Translations under genes and position numbers: made by a program | Notes under the pieces: model-generated | The model's input: only the letters and a program-made list of their open reading frames with translations | Database searches by the model: none | What the model was told of the DNA's origin: nothing | Shown here: piece after piece, positions 15,369 through 46,267 of the stretch | How the letters are laid out: each line of letters begins with the position of its first letter | How positions within the stretch are numbered: position 1 is the stretch's first letter | From: Pelagibacteraceae bacterium AG-337-I02 | GTDB lineage: Bacteria > Pseudomonadota > Alphaproteobacteria > HIMB59 > GCA-002718135 | DNA: 64,000 nucleotides | Reading direction: 5' to 3' | NCBI GenBank assembly: GCA_003282155.1 | Contig: QBZY01000003.1 | Coordinates: forward strand, 27,115 to 91,114

Positions 15369-15411
15369 ATAAATTGAATATAGAATATAGTTTATAATTT
15401 TATAAAAATCT

Positions 15412-17493: not shown

Positions 17494-17498
17494 TAGTT

Positions 17499-18115: not shown

Positions 18116-18121
18116 TTTGGA

Positions 18122-18197
<76 letters not shown>

Positions 18198-18247
18198 ATC
18201 AAATTTGTATTCTATATAGTTCAAATATTGTAAGCGCAAGTGATTAA

Positions 18248-18739
18248 CTAAGAGTTTTTTTTATTAAGTTGTTCTAAAGTATTTTTAGAAACAAAATTTG
18301 AAACATCTCCACCTAGTTTATGGACTTCTTTGACAAAATTAGATGAAATGAATGAGTTTTTTTCAGAAGTCATAAGAAATATTGTCTCAATATCGGGATT
18401 AAGTTGGTAGTTCATACCTGTCATTTGAAATTCATACTCAAAATCGGATACTGCTCTTAAGCCCCGTATTATACATGTGGCATTTTGATCTTTAGCAAAT
18501 GTTGTAAGTAATCCTGATAATTCAATAACATCAATTTTCAAATTTAATTCATTTACAGAACTGATATCACTTTTAATAATATTTATTCTTTCTTGAACAT
18601 TAAATAATGAGTGCTTATTAATATTATTAGCGACAGCTATTACTAAATTATCTACTATTCTTAATGATCTTTTAATTATGTCCATATGACCAGCAGTCAT
18701 AGGGTCAAATGTGCCTGGATATATTCCAATTTTATTCAT
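18248..18739 (-). CDS. coaD: pantetheine-phosphate adenylyltransferase
   Basis: [16 protein letters not shown] motif. The track ORF extends to 18784. The ATG at 18737-18739 ([13 protein letters not shown]) gives the canonical N-terminus and avoids overlap with gyrA. The ATG at 18748 is an alternative. Confidence 0.9.
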
Positions 18740-21422
18740 TGTCTTCATAATCTTGTATTCTAGAAACTGAGACAATTCTATCACTTTCTGGTATCTTAAA
18801 AATACTTACACCCTTTGTTGATCTTCCAGCTATTCTTATTTGATTTACATTTACTCTAATTATTTGACCTTTATCACTTACAAGAATGATCTCATCATTA
18901 TCTTTAACGACAAAACAGTCAACAACTTCACCATTTTTTTTAGATGTTAATATTCCCGTAATTCCTTTACCTCCTCTATTTGAAATTCTATACTCATAAG
19001 CAGATGATCTTTTGCCAAAACCTTTTGATGTAATAGCTAAAAGAAATTCTTCATTTTTATTTAATTCTTCAAAACCATTTTTAAGAGAAGATGTTTCTTT
19101 TCTACTTTCAGATGCTGCTCTTAAGTATTCTTGTCGTATACTCATATCAATTAATGAGTGTTTTAAAATTGCTAGAGAAATAATATCGTTGCCCTTGTCT
19201 AACTTTATGCCTCTAACACCAGAAGAATTTAAACCAGAAAATAATCTTAATTTTTCAACTGGAAAACGTAAACATTTTCCATTTGATGAAGAGAGTAAAA
19301 TATCATCATTTATAGTACAAAGTTTGACACCAATTAATTCATCTTTTTCATCAAGCTTAATTGATAACTTACCTGAATCACGTAATTCTCTTTTTCCACT
19401 TTTAGCAACATCGATTAATTTATTTTTTCTTACCATTCCATTTTTTGTTGCAAAAATAACATAGCACTTATCCCATTGATTTTCATCCAAAGGCAATGGA
19501 AGAAAAGTAGATATTTTTTCATTAGATTTAAAAGGTAGTAAATTTACTATTGGCTTTCCCCTAGCCTTTAAGCTGGCCTCAGGAACATCATGCGATTTAA
19601 GTGAATATACTTTACCTAATGATGAAAAGACTAAAAGTTTAGTATGAGTATCTGCAAAGTGTATTTCTTTTACAAAATCTTCTTCTCTTGTTGACATACC
19701 AGTTTTACCTTTACCTCCTCTATTTTGGGAACGATAATTAGATAAAAGTGATCTTTTGATATATCCATTATTGGAAATTGTTAAAACTATATCCTCTTGT
19801 TGAATATATTTTAAATCATCTACTTGTTCATATTCTTGATCAATAATTTCACTTCGTCTATCAGTGGCAAATTCTTTTTTTATTTCAGTTAATTCATTCT
19901 CTATTTCTTTTAAAAGAATATCCCTTGAATTAAGTATTGATAAGTAATTTTTTATTTCTAAAATTAAAGCTTCTAAGTCTTTTTGTATATCTTCTCTTTC
20001 TAAAGCAGTTAATTTTTGCAATCTTAATTCTAGAATAGCTTTAGCCTGTGCATCAGAGAAATAGAAAATATTGCTTTTTAATTCTATTGTATCATCCTCA
20101 ACTAATTTAATAAAATTAAGATTTTGTTTAGATACTTTCCATTTCTTTTTAATTAATTTTTCTTTTGCTTCTTTGGAATCTTTTGAACTTTTTATTAATT
20201 CTATAATTTCATCAATATGTTCATTAGTAACAACTAATCCAACTAAAATATGAGCCTTTTCTCTAGCTTTATTAAGATCAAAAAGTGTTCTTTTTATTAT
20301 TACTTCTTCTCTAAAATCTAAAAATGAAGATAAAATTTCTTTTAAATTCATTTGTTCTGGCTTACCTTTATTTAAAGCAAGCATATTAGAATTAAATGTT
20401 GTTTGGATTAATGTATGTTTATATAATTGATTGAGAATAATTTTTGAATCTACATCTTTTTTTAATTCAATAACTACTCTAACACCATTTCTATCTGACT
20501 CATCTCTTAAATCTGATATACCTTCTACAATTCCATTTTTTACAATTTCCGCAATTCTTTCGAGTAATTTTGATTTATTTACTTGGTAAGGAATCTCGTG
20601 AAGAATTATTGCTTCTCGATCTTTTTTAAAATTTTCAATACTAGTTTTTGATCTTACAACACAACTACCTTTTCCAGTTTCAAATGCTTCAGTTATGCCT
20701 TTTTTTCCAATTATTTGCCCTCCTGTAGGAAAATCAGGACCAAAAATATATTTTTGAAGATCAATTATATTACAATTTGGATTTTTAATTAGAAACAATG
20801 ATGCATCTATTATTTCTCCTAAATTGTGTGGAGCAATATTTGTCGCCATTCCAACTGCAATTCCTGATGCACCATTAACTAAAAGATTTGGAAATTGAGA
20901 TGGCAGAACTGAGGGTTCTTTTGTTGTGTCATCATAATTAGGCTGAAAAGTTACGGTATTTTTATCAATATCTTCAACAAGTTTTTCTGATACCTTAGCA
21001 AGTCTTGCTTCAGTGTATCTCATTGCTGCAGGAGGGTCTCCGTCTAAAGATCCAAAATTTCCTTGACCATCAACTAACTCTAATCGCATAGAAAAATCTT
21101 GTGCCATTCTAACCATAGAATTGTAAATAGCTGAGTCTCCGTGAGGATGATATTTACCCATTACATCACCGACTATTCTTGCAGATTTTTTATATGGTTT
21201 ATTAAAATTGTACCCTGACTCGCTCATAGAGTATAATATTCTCCTATGAACTGGCTTTAAGCCATCTCTACAGTCTGGAAGTGCCCTACTAACTATTACA
21301 GACATTGCATAATCCAGGTAGGATTTTTGCATTTCTTGCTCTAAACTTACTGATGGTATATTAGTAGTTTCTTGATTGTCGTTATTTGATGTATCTTTAT
21401 CTTCAGGCACTAAAAAATCCAA
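18732..21422 (-). CDS. gyrA: DNA gyrase subunit A
   Basis: [24 protein letters not shown], active-site Tyr region [10 protein letters not shown], and C-terminal beta-pinwheel repeats. No in-frame ATG lies upstream of the conserved N-terminus, so the start must be TTG (21422) or GTG (21410). Confidence 0.97.
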
Positions 21423-21551
21423 GTTTTCTAAGAAAAATTAAGTATTTTTTATATCAAAAAGCACAATTTAAACCAATATAAATAAAAAATTAAATTATAT
21501 AATAAAAACTATATTATTCAGTAATTAAATTATAGTATCTAATATAAATAT

Positions 21552-22025
21552 TTAAAAAGGTATATCTTCATCTAAATCATCAGAATCACCTGATTGATTT
21601 CCAAAAGAATTATCTTCAATTGGCTTAGATTGATCTATTTCTTGAGAATTATCAGATATCTGAGAATTACTATTTCTGCTATCTAAGAGAGTTAAATTAC
21701 AATTATAACCCTGTAAAATGACTTCTGTAGTGTATCTATCATTTCCATCTTTATCTTGCCATTTCCTTGTTTGAAGCTCTCCTTCAATATAAATTTTAGA
21801 TCCTTTTTTTACATATTTTTCTACTATATCAACTAACCCGTCTCCAAATACTACTATGTTATGCCAAGATGTTTTTTCTTTTTGTTCTTGTGTGTTTCTA
21901 TCTTTCCATCTTTTTGATGTTGCTATTGAAAATGAAGCCATTTTAGCTCCAGACTGCATAGATCTAATCTCAGGGTCTCTTCCCAAGTTTCCTAATAAAA
22001 TTGTTTTATTAACACTACCAACCAT
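21552..22025 (-). CDS. ssb: single-stranded DNA-binding protein
   Basis: OB-fold N-terminus MVGSVNKTILLGNLGRDPE and acidic tail ending DEDIPF. The track ORF extends to 22046. The ATG at 22025 matches the family N-terminus. Confidence 0.95.
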   Translation of the reverse strand: MVGSVNKTILLGNLGRDPEIRSMQSGAKMASFSIATSKRWKDRNTQEQKEKTSWHNIVVFGDGLVDIVEKYVKKGSKIYIEGELQTRKWQDKDGNDRYTTEVILQGYNCNLTLLDSRNSNSQISDNSQEIDQSKPIEDNSFGNQSGDSDDLDEDIPF

Positions 22026-22082
22026 AAGAATACTATATATATCCATATAACATATTAAAGTTATTAGATAACACTAATATTC

Positions 22083-24887
22083 ATGAATTTAGATAAAATT
22101 GTTATAAAAGGTGCGAGAGAGCACAATCTTAAAAACATAAACTTAGAAATACCAAAGAATAAACTCGTAGTAATAACTGGTGTAAGTGGCTCAGGAAAAT
22201 CGACGTTAGCATTTGATACAATTTATTCTGAGGGACAAAGAAAATATGTTGAAAGTCTTTCTGCATATGCAAGACAATTTCTTCAAATGATGAATAAGCC
22301 TGATGTAGATAGTATTGACGGTCTATCACCAGCTATTTCTATTGAACAAAAAACAACACAAAAAAATCCAAGAAGCACCGTTGGAACTGTTACTGAAATT
22401 TATGACTACCTTAGAGTTTTATATGCTAGAGTTGGCGTTCCATACTCTCCAACAACAGGTAAACCAATTAAATCACAATCAGTAAGTGAAATGACTGATC
22501 TCATAATTAAAAATAATATTGATAAAAGAATTTATATTTTATCTCCAATAGTTAGAGATAGAAAAGGTGAATATCGAAAAGAAATAGAAGATTTAAAAAA
22601 AAGAGGTTATCAACGTCTCAAAGTAGATAATGTTGTTTATGATATAGATGAAGTACCTTCACTTAAAAAGAATTTCAAACACAATATTCATGTTGTAATT
22701 GATCGACTTGTTGTAAAAAAAAACATTCAACAAAGACTGAGTGAAAGTATAGAAGTTGCGTTAACACTCTCTGATGGTTTATTGTATTTAGAGAATCTAG
22801 ATACAAATAAAATATCGATATTTTCATCAAAATTTGCATGCCCTGTATCTGGATTTAGTATTGAAGAAATTGAACCTAGGTTATTTAGTTTTAATGCTCC
22901 ACAAGGTGCCTGTTCTGAATGTGATGGACTAGGGGTTGAAAAATATTTTGATGAAAACAAAATTGTGCCCGATGAAACAAGATCAATATCCGATGGAGCT
23001 ATTAAGCCATGGGAAACGAAGGTATTTGGTTATCAAAAAAAATATTTTGTTGAAACAATAGATAAAATTTTAAAACAATTTAAAGTTAAAAGAAATGTTC
23101 CATGGAGTCAAATTCCAAAAAAAGTAAAAAATATTATTCTTTATGGAGATGAGAACAGTGAATTAAATTTTTTATTTGATTTTGAGGGTATAATTAACTT
23201 TATTGATAGAAAATATGAAGAAACTGAGAGATGGTGGCTTCAATATGAACTAGAAAAATATTTATCTGAAAGAGACTGTGAAGTTTGTAAAGGTTACCGC
23301 CTTAATGAGAAAGCTTTAGCTGTAAGAATTGATGAAAATCATATTGGTAACATTACAAAAAAATCAATTAGTGAGTGTTTAAGTTGGTTTTCATCACTTG
23401 AGGGTAAACTTGACAAAAATAATAAAAAAATTGCAGAGGGAGTAATTAAAGAAATTAAGGATAGATTAGTTTTTTTAAATAGAGTCGGTTTAGATTATCT
23501 ATCATTGGCAAGAGCTAGCAAAACTTTATCTGGAGGTGAAAGTCAAAGAATTAGATTAGCAAGTCAAATTGGTTCTGGTTTAACAGGAGTTTTGTATGTT
23601 TTGGATGAACCTTCTATTGGATTACATCAAAAAGATAATCAACAACTTATAGAAACATTATTTAGATTAAGAGATTTGGGGAATACAGTAATTGTTGTTG
23701 AACATGATGAAGACGCAATTAGACAATCAGATCATATTATTGATATTGGTGTTAAGGCAGGAGTTAATGGAGGTCATATAATTGCAGAGGGAGGACTAAA
23801 AAAAATACTTAAAAATAATAAAAGTTTGACAGCAAAATATTTAAATAAATCCTTAGAAATAGAAGTTCCAAAAAATAGAAGAAAATTTAATAAAAATAAA
23901 GTTTTCAAACTTAATAAAATAAAAACAAACAATTTAGATAATCTTGATATCACTTTACCTTTAGGTAATTTTATTTCTGTGACAGGTGTATCCGGAAGTG
24001 GTAAATCTTCATTAATTATTGATACATTGTATCAAAGATTAGATGAATATTTCAATAAATCTTTAAATAAAGATGAGGGTCGTTTTAACTTTAAAGGTAT
24101 CAATCATATTGATAAAGTAATTGATATTGATCAATCTCCTATTGGAAGAACGCCAAGATCAAACCCAGCAACATATACAGGATGTTTTACTCCAATAAGA
24201 GATTGGTTTGCAAACTTAAATGAGTCTAGTGCTAGAGGTTATAAACCAGGTCGTTTTTCATTCAACGTTAAGGGAGGTAGATGTGAGTCATGCGAAGGGG
24301 ATGGTGTAAAAAAAATAGAAATGCATTTTTTAGCTGATGTTTATGTCGAGTGTGATATTTGCAAAGGTAAAAGGTATAATAGAGAGACTTTAGAAGTAAA
24401 ATATAAGGATAAATCTATTTCTGATGTTTTAGAAATGACAGTCGAGGAAGGTTATAAATTTTTCGATAAAATTCCTGCGATAAAACAAAAATTACAAACT
24501 TTAATGGATGTCGGATTAGATTATATAAAAATAGGTCAATCAGCTACTACTTTGTCAGGTGGCGAAGCACAAAGAATAAAATTATCCAAAGAATTATCAA
24601 AAAGATCAACAGGAAAAACATTGTATATTCTAGATGAACCAACAACCGGTCTTCATTTTGATGATGTCAAAAAATTACTTAAGATACTTCATACACTTGT
24701 TGATGAAGGTAATACTGTAATCGTTATTGAGCATAATCTTGATGTTATTAAAACATCTGATCATATAATTGATCTGGGTCCTCTAGGAGGTGTAAATGGT
24801 GGTAAAATTGTTGGAACTGGAACACCTGAAGATATTGCAAATAATAAAAAAAGCTTTACAGGTAAATTTTTAAAGAAAATTTTATAA
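22083..24887 (+). CDS. uvrA: excinuclease ABC subunit A
   Basis: 934 aa. Two ABC modules (GVSGSGKS twice; LSGGESQR and LSGGEAQR). CxxC zinc modules. Confidence 0.97.
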
Positions 24888-34292: not shown

Positions 34293-34736
34293 TTACTGAT
34301 CCTTACAAAAATTATAAACTTCTTCAACATGACCTTTAACTTTGACTTTATTCCAAGAATTTAAAATTTTTCCATTTTTATCCATTACAAATGTAGATCT
34401 ATCTATCCCAAAATATTTCCTACCGTACATAGATTTTTCTATCCAAATACCCAGTTTATCACAATTTTTTCCTTCATCTGAACCAAGTGGGTATTTCAAT
34501 TTATACTTATCTGAAAATTTTTTATTCCGATCAACAGGATCTTTAGAAGCTCCTATTACATCAAAGCCAATTTTATTAAATTTTGTTAAATATTTCTGAA
34601 AGTCTGCAACTTCTACTGAGCATCCACCAGTTAACGCCTTAGGGTAAAAGAATAAAACTGTTTTATTCTTTAATTTAGATGAATCAAACTCATTGTCGTT
34701 TGTTAATAGAAGTTTTATCTTAGGAATTTTTTTCAT
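34293..34736 (-). CDS. bcp: thioredoxin-dependent thiol peroxidase (Bcp-type peroxiredoxin)
   Basis: Aligns along its length by eye with E. coli Bcp: VLFFYPKALTGGCSVE vs VLVYFYPKAMTPGCTVQ, DVIGASKD, GIDRSTFVMDKNGKI. Confidence 0.85.
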   Translation of the reverse strand: MKKIPKIKLLLTNDNEFDSSKLKNKTVLFFYPKALTGGCSVEVADFQKYLTKFNKIGFDVIGASKDPVDRNKKFSDKYKLKYPLGSDEGKNCDKLGIWIEKSMYGRKYFGIDRSTFVMDKNGKILNSWNKVKVKGHVEEVYNFCKDQ

Positions 34737-34738
34737 AA

Positions 34739-35860
34739 TTATACTACTAGTTTAAGACCGTAACCAGCTTTTTTAACTCTTGTTTTAAAATAATTTTTAT
34801 TAAATTTATTCAAGGTTGGCTTTGTATTTATTTGATTTTCGACTTTAATTCCAGCTTTCTTAATTGAATTAATTTTATTTTTATTATTTGTAATAAGATT
34901 AACTTTATTTATTTTTAATAATTTAAGTATTCTAGCTGCAATATTAAAATCTCTCTCATCATCTAAAAAACCAATATTATGATCGGCGTCTATTGTATCC
35001 ATACCTCTTGCTTGAAGAGAATAGGCTCTCATTTTATTAGCTAATCCTATTCCCCTACCTTCTTGTTCTAAATATAATATAATTCCACCATTATTTCTAA
35101 CCATGTAATTGATTGATTGATTTAATTGTTCACCACAATCACATTTTAAAGAATGAAAAATATCACCTGTAAAACAAGCTGAATGTATTCTTAAATTAAC
35201 AGATTTTTTATTTATTTTTTTTGGATTAACAATTATCGCTACATGTTTATCAGATCCAATATATGATTTAAATATTTTAAAATTAGAATTTTCATTTTTT
35301 GGTAATGGAACTTTTGCACTAGAAACTAATTTGATACTTTCACAAATTAATTCATTTTGCTTCAATAAATCTTTATAATCGAATATTAAAATTCCATTTT
35401 TAAATCCAAATTCATTTATATTTTTGTAATATTTTTTATTAATTTTTTTAAAAACTAGCGATGGTATCATTTTAGCATTTTTGGAAAGATCAATACAAAC
35501 ATTATGAAAATTTTTAGGTTTGAATTTTTTAATATTGGTAAATTTAATTACTTTATTATTGCTAAGAGGATTGACAAATAAATTTATTATTTGATTTACA
35601 TCTGTATTGGGATTTATCTCAAAATAAATATTGCTTTTAATATTCTTATTAAAAATTGATTGAGCTTTTTGTTTAGTAATAAGTAGATATTTTTCGTTAA
35701 TTAAGTGCTTATTGAATTGATTAAAAATTTTACTTTGGGAATGCTCTATATTAAAGAACATCCAATATTCCTTATTATTCTGAATTATTAACGGTCTTCC
35801 AGTCCTGAGTTCGTTAATTGCCCTATCTATTATAGTTCCTGTATTAGATTTGAAACTCAT
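34739..35860 (-). CDS. GTP cyclohydrolase II with a degenerate RibB-like N-terminal domain
   Basis: C-terminal half: RIHSACFTGDIFHSLKCDCG (Zn cysteines), LEQEGRGIGLANKMRAYSLQ, ITNNKNK. N-terminal half begins IDRAINELRTGRPLII but lacks the acidic DHBP-synthase active-site motif. The track start at 35896 is TTG. The first ATG is at 35858-35860. Confidence 0.8.
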   Translation of the reverse strand: MSFKSNTGTIIDRAINELRTGRPLIIQNNKEYWMFFNIEHSQSKIFNQFNKHLINEKYLLITKQKAQSIFNKNIKSNIYFEINPNTDVNQIINLFVNPLSNNKVIKFTNIKKFKPKNFHNVCIDLSKNAKMIPSLVFKKINKKYYKNINEFGFKNGILIFDYKDLLKQNELICESIKLVSSAKVPLPKNENSNFKIFKSYIGSDKHVAIIVNPKKINKKSVNLRIHSACFTGDIFHSLKCDCGEQLNQSINYMVRNNGGIILYLEQEGRGIGLANKMRAYSLQARGMDTIDADHNIGFLDDERDFNIAARILKLLKINKVNLITNNKNKINSIKKAGIKVENQINTKPTLNKFNKNYFKTRVKKAGYGLKLVV

Positions 35861-35896
35861 TGAAACTTTATATAGATATAATTGAAATAAAAACAA

Positions 35897-36730
35897 ATGA
35901 TTACATCAAAAAATATAGGAATTTTACTAGATTTTATAAATAATTCTAAAAAGAATAGTGATTTATATTTATTAGTTAAAAAAAATAGTATTTCTTTATC
36001 ATCAATAAGAAAAAGTAACTTTTACATAAAAAATAATAATCTGGAATCTAAAATTAAAATAAGTAAATTTTATCAATCAATCTTAAATATCCTTCTCCCG
36101 ATATTAAGAAAAAACAAAAAATTAGTTATAGCTCAGATAGGACAAAGTATAGATGGTAGAATTGCATTAAATAATGGAAATTCACATTACATAAATAATC
36201 CCAAGAGTATTATTTATCTACATTGTTTACGAAGTATCAGTGATGCAATTATTGTAGGCTCTAATACAATTAAAAAAGACGATCCCCTATTAACAACAAG
36301 AAAAATAAAGGGAACAAATCCAAAAAGAATTATTATCGATGGCAGTCTTTCGCTAAATAACAAATATAAAATATTTAATGACGGTAATGAAAATATAATT
36401 TTTACAAAAAGTAATAAAAATATTAGATTGAATAATTCAACAATAATAAGATTAAAAGAAAAAAATTTTACTAAAAACTTAATTACGCAAATAAAAAAAC
36501 TTAAATATAAAAATATTTTAGTGGAGGGAGGATCAAAAACTATTTCAGAGTTAATAAATAATAAATATATTGATATTCTTCAATTCATGATTGCCCCAAT
36601 ATTAATAGGTTCCGGAATTAATTCATTAAATTTAAAAGAAATTTCAAATCTCAATAAAGCTATGAGACCAAAACATAATTTTAATAAATTAGAAAATGAA
36701 ATTATTGTTAATTTATTTCTTAATAGCTAA
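35897..36730 (+). CDS. RibD C-terminal-domain (diaminohydroxyphosphoribosylaminopyrimidine-type) NADPH reductase homolog, no deaminase domain
   Basis: IAQIGQSIDGRIA, LHCLRSISDAIIVGSNTIKKDDPLLTTR, ILVEGGSKTISELI. About 70 aa of N-terminal extension with no motif I recognise. Confidence 0.7.
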   Translation: MITSKNIGILLDFINNSKKNSDLYLLVKKNSISLSSIRKSNFYIKNNNLESKIKISKFYQSILNILLPILRKNKKLVIAQIGQSIDGRIALNNGNSHYINNPKSIIYLHCLRSISDAIIVGSNTIKKDDPLLTTRKIKGTNPKRIIIDGSLSLNNKYKIFNDGNENIIFTKSNKNIRLNNSTIIRLKEKNFTKNLITQIKKLKYKNILVEGGSKTISELINNKYIDILQFMIAPILIGSGINSLNLKEISNLNKAMRPKHNFNKLENEIIVNLFLNS

Positions 36731-37501
36731 AAAATCTGTATTATTTAAAATAAATCTAGATTTTTTTTCTTTAATACATTTTAAACGAAATTTTAACCAA
36801 TCATCAAAGTTAAGTTTATTTTTTTGAATAATTTCTCTACAAAAATTTAAGAAATAAATTTGAAATTCAAAATTTTTACTAACATTCCATGTAGAGTCAA
36901 AAACATATGTTTTGTGAGTCCTTTTAAATACTTTATTTATTAATTCAGTGCAATTTGGGCCAACGGCCACTTCCCCTATTCCTTTGTCAGATTTTTGATC
37001 TTTATTAAAAATATTAAGAATTTTTTTATCATCCTTGTGTTTTGGAAAAAATTTAAAATTACCGTTATAATTTAAGGTAAAGTAGACAATTTCTGTATCA
37101 ACATTTAACTTATGAAAATTTTTAAACCATTTTTCTGGAATAATATCTAAAAAAGCAGATCCTGTAACTAAATTATAATCATTAAAACTTATTTTTTCTA
37201 GATTATTAATTACATCAACAATTTTAAAATTAGTTTTTTTAATTTTAGATGATAATTTAATATTTTTTTTAAAATAATTTGTTGATTGATGTGATATATC
37301 TACAAAAGACCAATATTGATAATTTGATAATCGTGACTTAAGAAATCTATAATTAGATCCAGCACCTGAACCTAAGTCAACTATTCTAATTTTTTTTTTA
37401 TTTTTAAAAAATTTATTAATTAAATATAATATTCTTTTGTTTCGTGAATTTCTATCGACACTTTCTCTAAGATTTAACCATTTATTTTGAAATTCATGCA
37501 T
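36713..37501 (-). CDS. class I SAM-dependent methyltransferase
   Basis: Motif I IVDLGSGAGSNY and post-I acidic residue (FVDIS). 262 aa. Confidence 0.7.
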   Translation of the reverse strand: MHEFQNKWLNLRESVDRNSRNKRILYLINKFFKNKKKIRIVDLGSGAGSNYRFLKSRLSNYQYWSFVDISHQSTNYFKKNIKLSSKIKKTNFKIVDVINNLEKISFNDYNLVTGSAFLDIIPEKWFKNFHKLNVDTEIVYFTLNYNGNFKFFPKHKDDKKILNIFNKDQKSDKGIGEVAVGPNCTELINKVFKRTHKTYVFDSTWNVSKNFEFQIYFLNFCREIIQKNKLNFDDWLKFRLKCIKEKKSRFILNNTDFLAIKK

Positions 37502-37502
37502 A

Positions 37503-38567
37503 TTAAATTAATTTAACAAATTTCTTAGCTGACTCTTGAGGAGTAAGAAGATATCTTTTATTTTTATGAATATTAATATTTAGTTTTTTAAAATTTTTTT
37601 TATTTAATATATTTTTAATAATTATATTTCTAAGATCATTTACTTCAAATTTTTTAAAATAAATAACACCCTTTTTTCCTAGTGTATTTAAGATAGTATT
37701 AGTAAAAAAGGTTATGATTGGCTTTTTAATTATTAATGCATTTGCTAAAGACATACCAAAACCTTCATATTTACTTACCGAAATGTAACAATCTGTTTTA
37801 GAATATAATTTAGCTAATTTTGTATCTGAAATAGTACCATGGAATTTTATTTTTCTGTTCATTGAATTTTTAGAAATAAATTTTTTGAGTTTTTTGTAAT
37901 AACCTATATCTCTTGTAGTATCACCAACAATTTCTAAAATAAAATGATCCAAAGGCTTTAAAACTTTTAATAAAAAAAAATAATTTTTTCTATTTATAAT
38001 ACTTCCACATGTTAAAAAATTAATTTTACTATTATTCTTAAAATTATATTTTACAAGTCTCTCTATACCAGGTTCAACTACAGAAATTTTATTATTTAGT
38101 ACCTTAAATTCATTTATTAATAAATTTTTTGTATTTTTAGATGTCACAATAAATTTGTTTATTTTTTTGAAATTTTCTTTTTCTAATCTTAAGAATTTTT
38201 TTGACCTTTGACCTTTAAATTCAAGATATAAAGGATGATGTATTAGCGCGATAACATTATAAGTTAGTATTTTTTTAAAAATTGAATACATTCCTTCTAA
38301 AGCTAATCCATCTATAATAATTTTTGAGTCAGGATCAATTTTATCTAAAATTTTTAAAAAATATTTTATATCGTTATTTGAAGGAAAAGGATAATTTTCA
38401 CTTAGAGCAATTGGTCTAATATCTATATCTCTTTTCTTTGCATATTCTAGGATATTTTTTTCATAAATGTATCCTCCAGTTTTTGCATTAATATTTCCTG
38501 GATATACAAAATAAATATAGGATTTATTTTTAGATAACCTCTTGTTCATATGATGCCCATGCAACAT
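37503..38567 (-). CDS. glycosyltransferase, GT4 (group 1) family
   Basis: C-terminal EGFGMSLANALIIKKPIITF (E-x7-E region) and GT-B-like length. An alternative ATG at 38549 is possible. Either start overlaps the upstream PTPS-like gene. Confidence 0.75.
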   Translation of the reverse strand: MLHGHHMNKRLSKNKSYIYFVYPGNINAKTGGYIYEKNILEYAKKRDIDIRPIALSENYPFPSNNDIKYFLKILDKIDPDSKIIIDGLALEGMYSIFKKILTYNVIALIHHPLYLEFKGQRSKKFLRLEKENFKKINKFIVTSKNTKNLLINEFKVLNNKISVVEPGIERLVKYNFKNNSKINFLTCGSIINRKNYFFLLKVLKPLDHFILEIVGDTTRDIGYYKKLKKFISKNSMNRKIKFHGTISDTKLAKLYSKTDCYISVSKYEGFGMSLANALIIKKPIITFFTNTILNTLGKKGVIYFKKFEVNDLRNIIIKNILNKKNFKKLNINIHKNKRYLLTPQESAKKFVKLI

Positions 38568-38928
38568 TTGATTCTTGCAAGGTTATTTTAATTTTTTTTA
38601 GAGATTTGTAATCATCAGAGAATTCATTTTTTAGTCTATTCAAGATCTTATTGCAAATATCCTCTGCTAAAAACTCTGTTGAGGTAATTTTTCCCTTAAA
38701 TTCATCAATTTCATCTAAATTTTGATAATTATATATTTTAAGAATATCTTTTAAAGTCGTGGACACTATTCCTAAATCCATAATTATATTGTATTTATTA
38801 AGTTTATCAGTGAAAAATTCAGCATCTACTAGATATGTAGCTCCATGCATATTTTGGGCAGGTCCAAATACTTCTCCAGGTAAAGAATGAGCTATTAGAA
38901 TATTTTCTCTTACTTTTATCGAATACAT
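38530..38928 (-). CDS. 6-pyruvoyl-tetrahydropterin synthase / QueD-fold protein, divergent active site
   Basis: By-eye alignment to E. coli QueD: IAHSLP vs AAHRLP, NMHGATYLV vs RLHGHSFMV, TSTEFLAEDI vs PTSEVLAKWI, ITLQESNVAWASY vs VMVKETCTAGCIY. Confidence 0.65.
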   Translation of the reverse strand: MYSIKVRENILIAHSLPGEVFGPAQNMHGATYLVDAEFFTDKLNKYNIIMDLGIVSTTLKDILKIYNYQNLDEIDEFKGKITSTEFLAEDICNKILNRLKNEFSDDYKSLKKIKITLQESNVAWASYEQEVI

Positions 38929-38930
38929 AA

Positions 38931-39890
38931 TTAATATTTAACTAAATGCATTATTGTATCCTTATTTTGAAGGATTTTATAGTAATCTTTTTCTAAATCA
39001 AAAAAATTACTTTCACTAGTAATTAATTTTTCTAATTTTGAATTTTTTAAAGATTTAATTGCTAATTTTAATCTCCCCTCAAAATCATATTTATTTTTCA
39101 TGTATTTTGGTATTTTAGATACCTGTGAGCTAATAATTTTTAATCTTTTAGAATGAAAATACCCGCCTAAGGCAACTTCTCCTTTATTTTTACCATACCA
39201 ACTAGCTTCTACTATTTTTCCTTCGATAGATAATTTTTCCATTAAAGAATTTAAAACTGTATAATTCGCTGTGGTGTTTATTGCTACATCTATTTTCTCA
39301 ATATTTCTTATATCAATAAAATTTAATCCTAAGTAATTGGCAATTTTTCTTTTATTTTTATTATTATCAAAAACATAAACATTTTTATATCCATTGATTT
39401 TAAAAAAAAATGCAGTTAATAATCCTACAGAGCCAAGCCCTACAATCAGAATTTCGTTATTACTTTTAGATTGAGCGTCCCAAAAGATATTAATTGCTGT
39501 TTCCATATTTGCAGTTAGAATGTATTTTCGCAAATTGCCTTTTGGTAGAAAAATTAAATTTTGAATAGAAATTTCATATAAATCCTGATGAGGATACAGA
39601 CTGAATATTTTTTTGTTTATATATTTATTTGGACCATCGATAATATTCCCAACATTTATATAACCGTATTTTATAGGTAAATTAAAAGAACCCTCTTGAA
39701 AAGGAGCTTTCATTAATTCAAATTGATCCTGACTTACGCTTTTAGATGAAACTAATTTTTCAGTTCCCTTGCTAATACCTGAGTATATAGTTTTAACTAA
39801 AACTGTTTTGTTATTTTTATTGTATACAAGTTTTTTTTGATAAATTTTAGCTTGTTTTTTTTTATCAATCCATAAAGAATAAGATTTCAT
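38931..39890 (-). CDS. medium-chain dehydrogenase/reductase (BchC-like subgroup, no catalytic-zinc ligands)
   Basis: SGISKGTEKL occupies the place of GxCGSDxH. Rossmann motif ILIVGLGSVGLL. 319 aa. Confidence 0.65.
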   Translation of the reverse strand: MKSYSLWIDKKKQAKIYQKKLVYNKNNKTVLVKTIYSGISKGTEKLVSSKSVSQDQFELMKAPFQEGSFNLPIKYGYINVGNIIDGPNKYINKKIFSLYPHQDLYEISIQNLIFLPKGNLRKYILTANMETAINIFWDAQSKSNNEILIVGLGSVGLLTAFFFKINGYKNVYVFDNNKNKRKIANYLGLNFIDIRNIEKIDVAINTTANYTVLNSLMEKLSIEGKIVEASWYGKNKGEVALGGYFHSKRLKIISSQVSKIPKYMKNKYDFEGRLKLAIKSLKNSKLEKLITSESNFFDLEKDYYKILQNKDTIMHLVKY

Positions 39891-39903
39891 AATTCACTTA
39901 TAA

Positions 39904-40671
39904 ATGTATAATAAAAAAATGCTAACAAACTTTTGGGAAGAATTAACAACAAATGAAATTAAAAAAATAAATAGAAAAACAGTTTTAATTTTCCCATTTT
40001 CATCAATAGAACAACATGGTCCTCATCTTCCATTAAATACTGATAAAAAAATTCTTGAAGGAATATTATTAGAATTCAATAAAAAATATAATTCAAATAA
40101 ATATTTAATTATGCCTGAAATATATTTTGGTTCAGCTGCTGAACATACTGATTTTGATGGAACTATAAGTATTGATTCATTGGAATTTATATCGCACTCT
40201 TTATCAATTTTAGAAAATGTATGTAAATTGAAATTTAAAAATATATTACTTTTAAATAGTCATGGTGGACAAATAAGCCATATGGATATTATTGCTAAAG
40301 AATTGAAATCAGAATTTAAGATAAATATTGTAAAAGGCACTTATTTTTTATTTGATCAATTTAAAGGAATTATATCAAGTAAAGAAAAAGATTTTGGTTA
40401 CCATGGTGGAGAATTTGAAACATCTATTATGTTATATTTATTTCCAAACCTTGTTAGGGAATCTAAAATTTCTAAACATAGATTATCTCCTGATTATTTA
40501 TCATCTAAAACCATTTCTTATGAGAAAAATATTAAGAAAGCTTGGACTAGTAAAGAATTAAGTAAAAGTGGAATTATTGGAGATCCTAGAAAATCCAATG
40601 CGCAAATAGGAAAAAAAATAATTGATAGACTAACACAAAAATTAAATAAAATAATAAATGAGATGTTTTAG
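39904..40671 (+). CDS. creatininase-family metal-dependent amidohydrolase (family includes archaeal ArfB formamide hydrolase and MftE)
   Basis: PFSSIEQHGPHLPLNTD, LLLNSHGGQ, GYHGGEFETS motifs. An alternative start at 39919 is possible. Confidence 0.75.
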   Translation: MYNKKMLTNFWEELTTNEIKKINRKTVLIFPFSSIEQHGPHLPLNTDKKILEGILLEFNKKYNSNKYLIMPEIYFGSAAEHTDFDGTISIDSLEFISHSLSILENVCKLKFKNILLLNSHGGQISHMDIIAKELKSEFKINIVKGTYFLFDQFKGIISSKEKDFGYHGGEFETSIMLYLFPNLVRESKISKHRLSPDYLSSKTISYEKNIKKAWTSKELSKSGIIGDPRKSNAQIGKKIIDRLTQKLNKIINEMF

Positions 40672-40694
40672 ATTTTATTTTTAAAAAAATTAAA

Positions 40695-41258
40695 TTAAAA
40701 AAATTTTTCGTACACATCGTTGTATTCACAATCATATACTTCACAGTTATCCAACATATATTCAGTTATTTGACTTAAGAATGTCCCATGACTAACTAAT
40801 ACAATTTTTTGTAAATTAAGTTTTTTGATTGATAGTAGAAAAGATTTTAATCTGATTTTAATATCATTATGAGACTCTTGTATAATTTTTTTTTCATTTA
40901 TAGGTTTGTTATTATTCCACCAAAAATCATTTAAATTATTAAAATCAAAATCATTAAAGTCTTTTTTTAATTTTTTTGGTTGCCTTCCTACATCACATGA
41001 GTGGTATAAATGCTCTCTTATTAATGGTTCAATTACAGGATTTTTAGATGGAAAAACAATAGAGAATGTCTCTAATGTTCTTGTTAAGGGGGAAGAAAAA
41101 TATTTATCAAATTTAAGATTTTTAATTCTACTATTTAATTTTTTTGCTTGCTCAACTCCTCTTTGAGTAATTCTTGCGTCATAATAATAAGTTGGATTAT
41201 CTAAATCTGATGCTGCATTAGCTTCTGACTCAGCGTGTCTAATAAGATATAATTTCAT
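40695..41258 (-). CDS. histidine phosphatase family protein (PGAM-like)
   Basis: N-terminal LYLIRHAESEAN (RHG-type motif), SSPLTRTLET, and the distal VLVSHGTFL histidine. Confidence 0.8.
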   Translation of the reverse strand: MKLYLIRHAESEANAASDLDNPTYYYDARITQRGVEQAKKLNSRIKNLKFDKYFSSPLTRTLETFSIVFPSKNPVIEPLIREHLYHSCDVGRQPKKLKKDFNDFDFNNLNDFWWNNNKPINEKKIIQESHNDIKIRLKSFLLSIKKLNLQKIVLVSHGTFLSQITEYMLDNCEVYDCEYNDVYEKFF

Positions 41259-41462: not shown

Positions 41463-42359
41463 TTAATACAAATTATTTTCTACTAATACTTTTTTTACAG
41501 TTTCACCCATTACAGAAGGGTTTTTGGAAATTGTAACTCCACACTCTTTAAGAAGTTCAACTTTTTCTATTGCGCTTTCACCATAAGCTGAAACAATGGC
41601 ACCAGCATGCCCCATTACACGACCTTTAGGTGCAGTTAGTCCTGCTATATACGCAATTACTGGTTTACTCATATTTTCTTTAGCAAATTGTCCAGCTTCA
41701 ACTTCTTGTGGACCACCTATTTCACCTATCATTAAGACTGCAATAGTTTCATCATCATTTTCAAACTTTTCAATTATATCTCTAAAAGAACTTCCATTTA
41801 TAGGATCGCCTCCTATACCTACACTTGTTGAAACACCAATTTCCAAATCTTTAAGTTGTTGTGCAGCTTCATATCCCAATGTACCAGATCTACTAACTAT
41901 TCCTATTTTACCCTCTTTGTAAATATGACCAGGCATAATACCTAACATAGATTTACCAGGACTAATTATTCCTGCACAATTTGGACCGACTAATCCCATT
42001 TTTTTATCTTTTGGATATCTTCTCATATATCTTTTTATTTTAACCATATCATGAGAAGGAATGCCGTCAGTAATAGCAACACAAGTTTTAATACCCGCAT
42101 CAGCCGCTTCCATAGCAGAGTCTGCTGCAAATGCTGGAGGAACAAATAAAATTGATGTTGATGCACCTGTTTTATCTACAGCCTCTTTAACAGTATTAAA
42201 AACAGGAAGATTTAAATGAGTCATACCACCTTTACCAGGTGTTACCCCACCAACAACGTTTGAACCATACTTAATCATTTCTTCAGCATGAAAGCTTCCA
42301 ATTTTTCCAGTAAAACCTTGCACTAAAATCTTTGTATTTTTGTGAATTATTATAGACAT
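41463..42359 (-). CDS. mtkB: CoA ligase alpha subunit of the SucD family; by context malate--CoA ligase (malate thiokinase) alpha subunit
   Basis: SRSGTLGYEA and the phosphohistidine loop MGHAGAIV. 298 aa. Third gene of an overlapping mcl / beta subunit / alpha subunit string. Confidence 0.8.
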   Translation of the reverse strand: MSIIIHKNTKILVQGFTGKIGSFHAEEMIKYGSNVVGGVTPGKGGMTHLNLPVFNTVKEAVDKTGASTSILFVPPAFAADSAMEAADAGIKTCVAITDGIPSHDMVKIKRYMRRYPKDKKMGLVGPNCAGIISPGKSMLGIMPGHIYKEGKIGIVSRSGTLGYEAAQQLKDLEIGVSTSVGIGGDPINGSSFRDIIEKFENDDETIAVLMIGEIGGPQEVEAGQFAKENMSKPVIAYIAGLTAPKGRVMGHAGAIVSAYGESAIEKVELLKECGVTISKNPSVMGETVKKVLVENNLY

Positions 42360-42361
42360 TA

Positions 42362-43522
42362 TTATCCAAGAGCTTTTACTGCTTTATTCGCTGCATCTTC
42401 TAAAGTTGATGCTTCAATATAATTAATATTACTTTTTTTGAGTATTTCATTTCCTTTTTCAACATTAGTACCAGCTAAACGTATAACTAAAGGATGTTTG
42501 ATTTCAATTTTTGATAAAGCTTGAACAATTCCTTCTGCAACCCAATCACATCTGTTTATTCCTGCAAAAATATTAACTAAAATTACCTTAACTTTTGTGT
42601 CCATAGAGATTAATTTAAAAGCTTTAACTATTTTCTCAGGAGTTGCACCTCCGCCAACATCTAAAAAGTTTGCAGGCTCACCGCCAGCAAGTTTTATCAT
42701 GTCCATTGAAGCCATTGCTAAGCCTGCACCGTTAATAATATTACCAATATTTCCATCTAGGCTTACATAATTCATTCCTCTGTCAGAAGCATAAACTTCA
42801 TTTGAATTTTCTTGTGTTTTATCTCTAAGTTCTGCAATTTCATCTCTTCTAAACATTGCATTATTATCAAAACTCATTTTACAATCTAATGCTAATATTT
42901 CATCTTGTTGTGATACAACCAATGGATTAACTTCAACCATTGTTGCATCAAGCTCACTAAAGGCTTTATAGCAACCAATAATTGTATTTGCAGCTCTTGA
43001 AATCAATTTGGATTCAATTCCTAAACCAAAAGCTATTTCTCTTGCTTGAAATTGTTGAATACCAACTGCTACCTCTATTTTAGATCTTATAATTGTTTCA
43101 GGCTTTTCTTTTGAAATCTCTTCGACACTCATTCCACCTTCTGTTGAAGCTACAACCATTATACTTTCTGAAGATCTATCAAACACTAAGCCTAAATATA
43201 ATTCATGTTTGATATCTGTTGCTTCTTCAATATAAATTCTATTTATTATCTTACCTTCTGGACCAGTTTGGTTTGTAATTAATTTTTTACCTAACAATTT
43301 ATCAGTTGCATCAGCAACTTCTAACGGAGAATTACATATAATAATTCCTCCCGCTTTACCTCTAGCACCAGAGTGAACTTGCGCTTTTACAACCCATTTT
43401 GAACCACCAATTTCTCTTGCTTTATTTTCTGCATTTTCTGGACTATAAACAATACCACCAGTCGGAATTTTAACACCAAAATCAGACAATATTTTTTTTG
43501 CTTGATATTCATGTATATCCAT
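42362..43522 (-). CDS. mtkA: CoA ligase beta subunit of the SucC family (ATP-grasp); by context malate--CoA ligase beta subunit
   Basis: MDIHEYQAK, GGEPANFLDVGGGA. NIFAGINRCDWVAEGI differs from E. coli SucC (NIFGGIVRCDLIADGI) and matches my recollection of methylotroph MtkA. The start overlaps the stop of the malyl-CoA lyase gene by 1 nt. Confidence 0.75.
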   Translation of the reverse strand: MDIHEYQAKKILSDFGVKIPTGGIVYSPENAENKAREIGGSKWVVKAQVHSGARGKAGGIIICNSPLEVADATDKLLGKKLITNQTGPEGKIINRIYIEEATDIKHELYLGLVFDRSSESIMVVASTEGGMSVEEISKEKPETIIRSKIEVAVGIQQFQAREIAFGLGIESKLISRAANTIIGCYKAFSELDATMVEVNPLVVSQQDEILALDCKMSFDNNAMFRRDEIAELRDKTQENSNEVYASDRGMNYVSLDGNIGNIINGAGLAMASMDMIKLAGGEPANFLDVGGGATPEKIVKAFKLISMDTKVKVILVNIFAGINRCDWVAEGIVQALSKIEIKHPLVIRLAGTNVEKGNEILKKSNINYIEASTLEDAANKAVKALG

Positions 43523-44460
43523 TACTTGCTCTCAATTAGTTTATTTATATTTACAATATTTTCAGCCATTCTTGCAGATGCTGCATCGATCATTCTTCCA
43601 TCAAGCTGAGCAGCACCCTTTCCTTCAGCGGCTGCTTTTTCTAATTCTAATAATATTCTTTTTGCTTTATCTATTTCTTCTTTGGGAGGAGAAAAAACTT
43701 CATTAGCAAGATCTATTTGCGATGGATGTATTGCCCATTTACCTTCAAAACCAATTGCTGCAGCTCTTTTTGCTGCATCAAGATATCCTTCTTTGTCATT
43801 AAAATCACCAAAAGGTCCGTCTATTGCTCTTAAGCCATATGATCTACAAGTCATTACTAAAGTTGATAAGCCATGATGCCATTGATCACCAGGGTAATCA
43901 GGATTTAAACCTCCTATGACAACAGTTCTTGCTCGCATACTTGCTGCATAATCTGCAACTCCAAAGTGTAATGCCTCTAGTCTTGAACTTGATGTTGCGA
44001 TTGATTGAATATTAGACATTCCTAGTGCTGTTTCAATTAAACATTCTAAACCTATTCTATTTTCAAATTTTTTATTTTGTTCAATTTGATTAAGCATACA
44101 ATCAACCATATATACATCAGATGATGAGCCTACCTTTGGAATTAATAATGTATCAACCCTATCGCCGACTTCTTCTACAATTTCAATCACATCACGATAC
44201 ATATAGTGTGTATCCAAGCCGTTAATTCTTATAGAAATTGTTTTACCTTCTTCTCTCCAATTATATTCTTTTATTGCATTAATAACATTTTTTCTTGCAT
44301 AAATTTTATCATTTGGGGATACTGCATCTTCTAAATCTAAAAAAATATAATCAGCATTTGATTTTAATGCTTTTTCAAACATCTTTGGATTAGAGCCAGG
44401 AACTGCCAATTCACTTCTGTGTAATCTAGATTTAGCAGGTTTATAAAATAAATGGCTCAT
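43522..44460 (-). CDS. mcl: L-malyl-CoA / beta-methylmalyl-CoA lyase (HpcH/HpaI-CitE family)
   Basis: Long colinear identity by eye with methylotroph Mcl: RLHRSELAVPGSNP, IFLDLEDAV, IRINGLDTHYMYRDV, LIETALGM, FGVADYAAS, IDGPFGDF, GFEGKWAIHPSQIDLANEVF. Confidence 0.85.
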   Translation of the reverse strand: MSHLFYKPAKSRLHRSELAVPGSNPKMFEKALKSNADYIFLDLEDAVSPNDKIYARKNVINAIKEYNWREEGKTISIRINGLDTHYMYRDVIEIVEEVGDRVDTLLIPKVGSSSDVYMVDCMLNQIEQNKKFENRIGLECLIETALGMSNIQSIATSSSRLEALHFGVADYAASMRARTVVIGGLNPDYPGDQWHHGLSTLVMTCRSYGLRAIDGPFGDFNDKEGYLDAAKRAAAIGFEGKWAIHPSQIDLANEVFSPPKEEIDKAKRILLELEKAAAEGKGAAQLDGRMIDAASARMAENIVNINKLIESK

Positions 44461-45667: not shown

Positions 45668-46267
45668 ATGTATATTTATGATTTTATCCAAGGATTAATA
45701 ATTGGAGGAACATTAATAATTGCTATAGGACCTCAAAATTTATTCGTAATACAACAAGGGCTTAAGAAATCTTATGTTTTTACAGTTACCTTATTTTGCA
45801 GTCTATCAGACAGTTTACTTATAGTAACCGGAATATATATATCTAATTATATTGTCCAAATTAATCCAAGTATCATAGGAATAATAAAAGTATTAGGTGG
45901 AATTTGGCTTATATTTTATGGTTTAAATAAAGTTAGAAAATTAAATCAAATTAAAGATATGAATAAAGAATTAAAAATAATTAATGAATTCGGAAAAGTA
46001 TTAATTACCTTATTCCTTATTACATACGCAAATCCTCATGTTTTTTTAGATACAGTTATTTTAATTGGATCATTATCAACAAATTTTAATGATCAATTTT
46101 CATTTGGTATTGGAGCGATTGCAGCTAGTTTTTCGTTTTTCTTTTTTTTGGGATATATGTCAAAGTTTTTATCAAAATATATTTATTCAAATAAAACTTG
46201 GTTTTGGATTGATCTAATTATTGGTCTGCTAATGATTAGTTATGGAATATATTTTATAATTTTCTAA
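45668..46267 (+). CDS. LysE/ArgO-family basic amino-acid exporter
   Basis: Colinear with E. coli ArgO by eye: FIQGLIIGGTLIIAIGPQNLFVIQQG vs [26 protein letters not shown], and NPHVFLDTVILIGSLS vs NPHVYLDTFVVLGSLG. Confidence 0.8.
   Translation: MYIYDFIQGLIIGGTLIIAIGPQNLFVIQQGLKKSYVFTVTLFCSLSDSLLIVTGIYISNYIVQINPSIIGIIKVLGGIWLIFYGLNKVRKLNQIKDMNKELKIINEFGKVLITLFLITYANPHVFLDTVILIGSLSTNFNDQFSFGIGAIAASFSFFFFLGYMSKFLSKYIYSNKTWFWIDLIIGLLMISYGIYFIIF

Follow-up and report, generated by a model that had tools for sequence, protein, structure and literature searches.

Here we describe eight consecutive genes (positions 34739–41258) in a stretch of 64,000 nucleotides (nt) from contig QBZY01000003.1 of the SAR11 bacterium Pelagibacteraceae bacterium AG-337-I02, referred to below as the window. 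The genes encode a GTP cyclohydrolase II (GCHII), a RibD_C-type reductase, a methyltransferase, a GT4-family glycosyltransferase, a protein of the 6-pyruvoyltetrahydropterin synthase (PTPS) fold, a medium-chain dehydrogenase/reductase (MDR), a creatininase-family amidohydrolase and a histidine phosphatase. Comparison across genomes reveals that the SAR11 genes are a trimmed copy of a cluster common to hundreds of bacterial species and some archaea. The core of this cluster comprises the MDR, PTPS-like, GT4 and methyltransferase genes, usually accompanied by the RibD_C reductase and GCHII, while the histidine phosphatase, which is specific to SAR11, and the creatininase, which occurs in some lineages only, lie outside this core. 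Judging from the protein families, the cluster probably turns GTP into a glycosylated and methylated compound of the pterin or pyrimidine type that keeps the 2-amino-4-oxo-pyrimidine face. The features of the locus are as follows.

34739–35896, minus strand: GTP cyclohydrolase II gene, longest open reading frame (ORF); protein of 373 or 385 amino acids (aa), PF00925 at residues 193–356
34739–35320, minus strand: GTP cyclohydrolase II catalytic domain, C-terminal half of this protein; PF00925, 164.7 bits
35321–35860, minus strand: predicted degenerate RibB-like N-terminal domain of the same protein, resembling 3,4-dihydroxy-2-butanone 4-phosphate (DHBP) synthase; family profile against the PDB
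35897–36730, plus strand: stand-alone RibD_C-type NADPH pyrimidine reductase; PF01872, 109 bits
36713–37501, minus strand: class I S-adenosylmethionine (SAM)-dependent methyltransferase with a family-specific C-terminal half; weak SAM-motif matches
37503–38567, minus strand: GT4-family glycosyltransferase; PF00534 (65.4 bits), PF13692, PF13439
38530–38928, minus strand: PTPS-fold (T-fold) protein, SCO6650 orthologue; PF01242, 74.6 bits
38931–39890, minus strand: cysteine-free MDR-fold dehydrogenase, polyol-dehydrogenase-like; weak ADH_zinc_N, Glu_dehyd_C and BchC matches, Foldseek
39904–40671, plus strand: creatininase-family metal amidohydrolase; PF02633, 187.8 bits
40695–41258, minus strand: histidine phosphatase (branch 1); PF00300 (His_Phos_1), 80 bits

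A preliminary description of the locus had placed eight tightly packed ORFs here. The ORF check agrees, with successive genes overlapping or separated by spacers of 0–36 nt, and Pfam matches the same families, the methyltransferase with sub-threshold scores only. Along the run of methyltransferase, GT4, PTPS-like and MDR genes there is a 1-nt spacer, then a 38-nt overlap and then a 2-nt spacer. The RibD_C and methyltransferase genes converge with an overlap of 18 nt, the MDR and creatininase genes diverge across 13 nt, and the creatininase and phosphatase genes converge across 23 nt. One start calls for a correction: the coordinates of the longest GCHII ORF stand, with a TTG at 35896 that abuts the start codon of the divergent RibD_C gene, but the most likely site of initiation is the ATG at 35860, 36 nt downstream, which gives the 373-aa form in public collections. 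Depending on the start, the GCHII/RibD_C spacer is 0–36 nt, and whichever start is used, no more than 36 nt are left for a divergent promoter. The genes switch strand along the locus in five alternating blocks and thus form a cluster rather than one operon. The window is AT-rich (GC 0.21–0.34).

We examined the distribution of the cluster through its MDR. HMMER searches of 1.8 billion representative sequences returned 126 MDR family members at E < 1e-30, and a scan with a 9-sequence alignment, taking one genome per species, found the family in at least 596 genomes. The best 80 of these include SAR11 single-cell genomes, Agrobacterium, Rhizobium, Martelella, Paracoccus, Roseovarius and Rhodobacter, together with Marinobacter, Vreelandella/Halomonas, Chromohalobacter, Thioalkalivibrio, Vicinamibacterales, Gemmatimonadota and Neomarinimicrobiota. 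The distribution also reaches Acidobacteriota, Streptomyces and haloarchaea, and the hosts outside SAR11 are often marine or halophilic. At 90% identity, the protein clusters of these genes hold 400–1100 sequences each, and single sequences occur on 692 to more than 1000 contigs.

For a detailed comparison we used 65 non-SAR11 and 18 SAR11 loci found through the MDR, and scored a gene as present when tblastn with the window protein located it within 10 kb. Among the non-SAR11 loci, the PTPS-like gene accompanies the MDR in 64, the methyltransferase in 60, GT4 in 58, RibD_C in 53, GCHII in 33 and the creatininase in 18, and the histidine phosphatase in none. This co-occurrence is far beyond chance, and in 47 of the 65 loci the MDR, PTPS-like, GT4 and methyltransferase genes are colinear on one strand. 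In SAR11 the creatininase is linked in all 18 loci and the phosphatase, a SAR11-specific addition, in 12. A SAR11 relative with an MDR 58% identical to that of the window has all eight genes among wholly different neighbours, with the phosphatase at the opposite end of the cluster, beside GCHII. The set is also found on plasmids of Methylosinus trichosporium OB3b and Streptomyces fungicidicus. Thus the other six genes travel with the RibA-like and RibD_C genes, both in differing SAR11 contexts and across phyla, and the refutation considered in the preliminary description, that they would not be co-conserved, fails.

The first enzyme of the putative route is well defined. GCHII scores 164.7 bits with PF00925 (cutoff 23.3) and 216.7 bits with the RibA subfamily model NF001591 (cutoff 148), and its family profile matches E. 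coli RibA (2bz0) with an E of 2.9e-76. All ten residues that we checked are identical to those of E. coli RibA. The three zinc Cys, the EGRGIG motif, the catalytic Arg and Glu and the RAY tyrosine are kept here and throughout the 46 homologues linked to the cluster, which extends an earlier remark that the zinc site, EGRGIG and the tyrosine are intact here.

GCHII is preceded by an N-terminal extension of 165–190 aa in all proteobacterial and SAR11 homologues. Pfam, including PF00926, does not recognize this domain in the window protein even at E ≤ 5 when the N-terminal 199 aa are searched in isolation. A profile of 20 homologues matches DHBP synthases over positions 17–140 (6mnz, E 1.7e-6; 3h07, E 4e-4), and the alignment retains the RibB-type 'LRxGRPV' start and lacks the acidic loop that follows it. 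A RibB-like domain without its acidic motif, as first suggested, is therefore what the profile finds, and the partner domain reads as a degenerate RibB domain. The RibBA equivalog models give 170–210 bits for the window protein against cutoffs of 486–764, and with the acidic loop missing as well, it does not belong to the bifunctional RibBA group and keeps a remote profile similarity to RibB.

In the S. fungicidicus plasmid p1 cluster, ribA (L085, 14569–15228) has RAM in place of RAY and no RibB-like domain. The Tyr is said to allow full deformylation, and a Tyr-to-Met change reportedly halts SCO6655, the GCHII paralogue of the S. coelicolor SCO6650–SCO6655 locus, at the formyl intermediate. 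We considered whether Tyr or Met tracks the presence of the creatininase and rejected this, as Proteobacteria and SAR11 all have Tyr and only the Streptomyces copy has Met.

A cluster on a plasmid of Haloarcula halophila (L086, 3463–11637) substitutes the first enzyme altogether. Its order is GT4, a Gfo/Idh/MocA oxidoreductase of 579 aa, a CDP-alcohol phosphatidyltransferase, GTP cyclohydrolase III (GCH III), MDR, PTPS-like protein and methyltransferase, with a PAP2 phosphatase nearby. The MDR is 40% identical to that of Streptomyces, and the PTPS-like protein has H-S-H-H instead of HGA. GCH III (PF05165, 272 bits) stands in the place of GCHII and is not homologous to it. GCH III also opens GTP and is used to produce the formyl intermediate AFRPP (PMC9478397). 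This replacement of one GTP-opening enzyme by another is the strongest evidence that ring-opened GTP is the start of the pathway.

The RibD_C protein carries the reductase domain at residues 77–249 and scores 115 bits with TIGR00326 (cutoff 156). Pfam finds no CMP/dCMP-type deaminase domain in it, so it falls outside bacterial RibD and is, as previously described, the reductase without the deaminase half. In bacterial RibD a Lys (K152 of EcRibD, K151 of BsRibG) favours the deaminated substrate AROPP, while the same specificity site is Thr in yeast Rib7 and Asn in archaea, and a T35K mutation flips the preference (PMC3631187). In HMMER alignments, a Gln of the window protein falls on the specificity Lys of 2hxv and 9no2 and on the Asn of the archaeal reductases 2azn and 6p8c, which act on 2,5-diamino-6-ribosylamino-4(3H)-pyrimidinone 5'-phosphate (DAROPP). 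Across 64 cluster-linked reductases the site is Gln in 56, His in six and Arg in two, and never Lys. With Gln for Lys and the deaminase absent, the enzyme is predicted to reduce DAROPP to its ribityl form DARIPP, which would keep the 2-amino-4-oxo face. Archaea reduce the 2-amino intermediate in their ordinary riboflavin route (PMC3631187), whereas bacterial RibD deaminates first; this would explain how an archaeal cluster can do without its own reductase while bacterial clusters require one. A natural fusion of RibD_C to MDR (P0214, 648 aa) joins the reductase to the next enzyme considered here.

The MDR contains no cysteine in its translation, thus the classical zinc ligands are absent. It was originally called BchC-like and zinc-ligand-free; the second part is borne out, while the BchC match is weak (49 bits against a cutoff of 291). 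ADH_zinc_N reaches 23.9 bits against 31.8, ADH_N does not match, and there is no match in the PDB by sequence. The AlphaFold2 (AF2) model is of very high confidence (pLDDT of 96.6). Foldseek matched it to MDR polyol dehydrogenases, namely glucose, butanediol, sorbitol, xylitol, arabinitol and L-idonate 5-dehydrogenases and TarJ (TM of 0.72–0.80, E of 5.7e-20 to 1e-15). TarJ is a ribulose-5-phosphate/ribitol-5-phosphate enzyme. The glycines of GxGxxG (G151, G153, G156) and Asp175 are invariant. In Rossmann folds an Asp after GxGxxG confers a preference for NAD(H), and the MDR is hence probably NAD(H)-dependent and works in the oxidative direction.

The PTPS-like protein has a single solved relative, 'Uncharacterized protein SCO6650' (PDB 3D7J), which it matches over its full length (residues 1–129, E 1.7e-33). 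In 75 of 78 cluster homologues the motif P-x4-HGA (P-A-Q-N-M-H-G-A in the window) replaces C-x3-HGH. The protein has thus lost both its catalytic Cys and the third of the zinc His residues, and differs in this from catalytic PTPS and QueD; the QueD model gives 37 bits against a cutoff of 89. Full-length orthology, the shared HGAT motif and the shared Streptomyces neighbourhood place it with SCO6650. The C-terminal Glu, which anchors the pterin in PTPS enzymes, is conserved. SCO6650 reportedly contains no zinc and has no PTPS activity, with the pterin-binding residues kept. We take SCO6650 and the cluster subfamily to be PTPS-V of de Crécy-Lagard's group. The function of PTPS-V 'is still unclear' according to a 2016 review.

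The tailoring enzymes are less distinctive. The methyltransferase has the DLGxGxG motif and matches class I SAM models below gathering scores only, although its orthologues match Methyltransf_25; against the PDB its profile matches the SAM-binding motif alone, with ToxA marginal (E 0.013). GT4 matches Glycos_transf_1 and Glyco_transf_4 in Pfam and gives generic matches in the PDB. Its gene lies directly downstream of the PTPS-like gene in non-SAR11 loci, and in Vreelandella GT4 and methyltransferase are naturally fused (L056, 11393–13327).

The creatininase-family protein matches PF02633 over its full length, has the metal-binding E-x-H...D...H...E pattern, and shows the motifs EQHGPHLPLNTD, NSHGG and GGEFE. 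It does not reach the cutoff of any of the MftE, creatininase and ArfB models (31.6 bits against 180 for ArfB) and is thus no member of the ArfB equivalog. BrbF (SMc02977), of the creatininase family, is a proven AFRPP formamidase (PMC9478397), and S. meliloti and Brucella cannot make riboflavin without a formamidase of this family. Because of this precedent, and because a creatininase gene adjoins the Met-type GCHII of Streptomyces, the family most likely serves deformylation where the cyclohydrolase leaves the formyl group in place. The Tyr kept in the GCHII of SAR11 and Proteobacteria leaves its role there unexplained. A separate idea, that the GTP cyclohydrolase missing from the BrbF pathway of S. 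meliloti comes from this cluster, was rejected, as the MDR matches on Sinorhizobium plasmids are weak (E > 1e-20) and not orthologues.

Outside SAR11 the cluster keeps company with lipid enzymes. Of the 65 non-SAR11 loci, 36 have a CDP-alcohol phosphatidyltransferase gene, in most cases immediately upstream of the MDR gene, while 27 encode a flippase-like protein of the LPG_synthase_TM (MprF TM) type and 29 an FkbM methyltransferase; examples among L019–L083 of these three kinds of gene lie at L056 8973–9713, 13331–14299 and 17169–17960 and at L060 7046–8676. The transferases of Streptomyces, Vreelandella and Agrobacterium are 43–48% identical to each other, which indicates a transferase family specific to the cluster, and resemble PgsA and phosphatidylinositol phosphate (PIP) synthase distantly, below the cutoffs of those models. 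None of the three genes is found in the 18 SAR11 loci or in the 64-kb window. This suggests that the product is lipid-attached outside SAR11, and SAR11 probably makes a soluble form. The complementary pattern of transferase and phosphatase suggests a phosphorylated ribityl intermediate that is joined to lipid elsewhere and merely dephosphorylated in SAR11.

We propose the following route. GCHII, whose catalytic residues are all present, would open GTP to give DAROPP, the first riboflavin-type intermediate, and on balance we expect the cluster to branch off here. The RibD_C reductase would turn DAROPP, undeaminated, into DARIPP. The MDR would then oxidize a secondary alcohol of the ribityl chain, the weakest step of the scheme. 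Were C2' the carbon oxidized, an Amadori-type ketone could close on the 5-amino group to give a pterin like 7,8-dihydroneopterin phosphate, and the zinc-less T-fold protein would bind and process this intermediate; we regard this particular step as possible and rather doubtful. In SAR11 the histidine phosphatase would strip the 5'-phosphate. GT4 would add a sugar, and the methyltransferase would methylate either the sugar or the heterocycle. The creatininase-family enzyme would hydrolyse a formamide or other amide, most plausibly as a formamidopyrimidine deformylase where the cyclohydrolase goes no further than the formyl intermediate. The earlier proposal for this locus was a dedicated route to a pyrimidine-, pteridine- or lumazine-type compound carrying methyl and sugar groups. 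Comparative evidence now supports such a route, with the amendment that a 2-oxo (lumazine) product is unlikely because no gene of the cluster deaminates.

A bolder version is that the cluster builds the head group of a new class of membrane lipid, a GTP-derived, ribityl-linked glycoside of a pterin or aminopyrimidine shared by Bacteria and haloarchaea, of which SAR11 kept the head-group part in soluble form with a phosphatase for the transferase. The CDP-alcohol transferase may then join the head group to CDP-diacylglycerol or CDP-archaeol, and the flippase-like protein may move the lipid. We put this forward tentatively and consider it unlikely.

Several points weigh against the proposed GTP-derived glycoside. 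Every step of the route past the opening of GTP is one that we infer, as is the choice of the ribityl carbon oxidized by the MDR. No more than 33 of the 65 non-SAR11 loci have GCHII within 10 kb, and neither the Streptomyces nor the Haloarcula cluster showed a RibD_C gene. The Tyr-type GCHII leaves the creatininase without an obvious substrate in SAR11. To reduce the intermediate and then oxidize it again on the way to an Amadori product is a detour, and dihydroneopterin is already made by organisms that have FolE. With neither transferase nor flippase-like gene nearby in SAR11, the product there may also differ from that of other lineages.

We weighed four other explanations. Four of the eight families, those of GCHII, the creatininase, RibD_C and the phosphatase, include riboflavin-pathway members, and the essential formamidase of S. 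meliloti and Brucella belongs to one of them. It is nevertheless extremely unlikely that GCHII, a BrbF-like creatininase, RibD_C and the phosphatase feed riboflavin synthesis here and that the other four genes are unrelated neighbours. It is the supposed bystanders that are best conserved from phylum to phylum, P0214 combines RibD_C and MDR in one protein, the deaminase is missing and the specificity Lys was never found, and the Haloarcula cluster has its own GCH III beside lipid enzymes. There is no flavin mononucleotide (FMN) riboswitch or other Rfam match at E ≤ 1 between 30 and 46 kb of the window, and neither RibH nor RibE (lumazine and riboflavin synthase) is encoded among the eight genes and ten flanking genes, in agreement with the earlier remark on the missing synthases. 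The RibA/TrpF and PTPS-III bypasses offer a model for a FolE-independent supply of dihydroneopterin for folate, with GCHII, reductase and dehydrogenase replacing GTP cyclohydrolase I and the PTPS-like protein replacing FolB. Chlamydia uses RibA to get around FolE (PMC4161248). Reduction at C1' and oxidation at C2' would amount to an Amadori rearrangement to dihydroneopterin phosphate, and PTPS-III and PTPS-VI paralogues do serve folate synthesis. We consider a folate supply of this kind very unlikely, since the Cys and one zinc His found in catalytic PTPS enzymes are gone from the PTPS-like protein, GT4, methyltransferase, CDP-alcohol transferase and flippase-like protein would have no part in making folate, and the hosts Agrobacterium, Halomonas relatives and Streptomyces possess FolE.

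The remaining two explanations stay closer to the proposed glycoside. The SAR11 product could itself be a membrane lipid with a GTP-derived glycoside head group, its transferase encoded elsewhere in the genome. The co-conservation of transferase and flippase-like protein with the core in Proteobacteria, Actinomycetota and one haloarchaeon, the frequent use of lipid acceptors by GT4 enzymes and the PAP2 phosphatase near the Haloarcula cluster speak for this, but SAR11 has a soluble-type histidine phosphatase instead of the two absent genes and the transferase is absent within 10 kb in 29 of the 65 non-SAR11 loci as well, and we regard it as improbable. Still less probable is an open-ring, vicine-like pyrimidine glycoside or a toxoflavin-like antimetabolite in place of a pterin. 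A plant GCHII paralogue fused to RibB does feed the pyrimidine glucoside vicine, and toxoflavin clusters combine GCHII, a RibD homologue and methyltransferases. The families of the eight proteins offer no N-glycosidase to free the pyrimidine and no candidate for ToxC or ToxD. The T-fold partner suggests a ligand with two fused rings, like a pterin or purine, and a core setting in a streamlined genome together with abundance in marine metagenomes would be unusual for a toxin. The GTP-derived glycoside that keeps its 2-amino-4-oxo face thus remains the explanation that we favour.

The surroundings of the locus consist of core genes, encoding a PrxQ/Bcp peroxiredoxin, EamA transporters, an aminotransferase, malate–CoA ligase, Mfd, RecG, UvrA and GyrA. 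The run of mfd, recG, gyrA and uvrA, for DNA repair and topology, occupies 11753–24887 of the window, and given this run the region is core genome and not a variable island. The core-gene setting in a streamlined SAR11 genome indicates that the product probably matters to the cell.

A gene for a PrxQ/Bcp-type thiol peroxidase (34293–34736, minus strand) begins 2 nt past the GCHII stop codon, and the two are probably co-transcribed. This adjacency is seen in the closest SAR11 relatives alone (7 loci) and not in the SAR11 groups of 58–62% identity. On the other side, the cluster adjoins genes for the alpha and beta subunits of a succinate/malate–CoA ligase and a CitE/malyl-CoA-lyase-like HpcH protein (41463–44460, minus strand). 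The beta subunit lies above the cutoff of the malate–CoA ligase equivalog (624 bits against 604), and the trio looks like a malyl-CoA module that handles glyoxylate. The peroxiredoxin, malate–CoA ligase and citE-like lyase were considered as cluster members and rejected, as they are not co-conserved in other SAR11 contexts. Further along (46254–49304, minus strand) lies a gene for a 1016-aa protein with a long N-terminal part and a C-terminal class-III aminotransferase domain (about residues 590–1015), which scores 1019 bits against NCBIfam PRK06148 'hypothetical protein' (cutoff 1128).

The cluster itself is not new to science. It was glimpsed through the structure of SCO6650 (PDB 3D7J, 'uncharacterized' since 2008) and the enzymology of SCO6655. 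New here are its wide distribution, with SAR11 and haloarchaea among the hosts, the finding of GCH III where GCHII would stand, the DAROPP-type reductase signature, the RibD_C-MDR fusion, and the association with lipid enzymes together with the phosphatase in their stead in SAR11. The genes are common in the ocean, and the core of the cluster occurs in at least 596 species. Solving the cluster would assign a function to the SCO6650-type branch of PTPS proteins and to a branch of GCHII, and could reveal a new pterin-type metabolite or lipid. Our analysis offers a testable route of DAROPP-specific reduction, polyol oxidation and ring closure, a link to lipid enzymes outside SAR11, and genetically tractable hosts.

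Full-text literature searches found no paper describing the product of the cluster, and the gene set had been said at the outset to fit no cofactor pathway familiar to its first describer. PTPS-I (QueD), PTPS-II and PTPS-III of COG0720 share the T-fold (PF01242) and the conserved C-terminal Glu with the window protein, in which the Cys and zinc His are replaced. The toxoflavin (tox) cluster likewise acts on a GTP-derived pyrimidine, with SAM methyltransferases, a RibD homologue and a paralogue of GCHII, whereas the eight proteins here include neither the RibD deaminase half nor candidates for ToxC and ToxD, and do include GT4, MDR, T-fold protein and creatininase. In the vicine and convicine pathway of faba bean, a GCHII paralogue of the RibB-RibA type diverts DAROPP to a glycosylated 2-amino-pyrimidine. 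This pathway belongs to a plant, an N-glycosidase removes the ribosyl group, and reductase, MDR, T-fold protein and methyltransferase are absent.

The early riboflavin steps of ArfA, ArfB and ArfC, Rib7 and BrbF resemble the proposed route in the opening of GTP, the hydrolysis of a formamide by a creatininase-family enzyme and the reduction of DAROPP before deamination. Unlike the archaeal and fungal pathways, the cluster has no deaminase, lumazine synthase or riboflavin synthase, has Gln instead of Asn or Thr at the specificity site, and continues with a dehydrogenase, T-fold protein, glycosyltransferase and methyltransferase. The clusters of its relatives recall the logic of PIP synthase, PIP phosphatase and PimA, with a CDP-alcohol transferase, an acceptor of the polyol-phosphate type, a phosphatase and a GT4 enzyme. 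The acceptor would differ, being a GTP-derived ribityl compound and not inositol or glycerol phosphate, and the SAR11 loci have no transferase. The SCO6650–SCO6655 locus of Streptomyces differs from the SAR11 cluster in having a CDP-alcohol phosphatidyltransferase and a flippase-like gene, with no RibD_C or histidine phosphatase nearby, but shares the PTPS-like orthologue. In S. fungicidicus the MDR, PTPS-like, GT4, methyltransferase, creatininase and ribA genes follow in the same order, and their proteins are 22–47% identical to those of the window.

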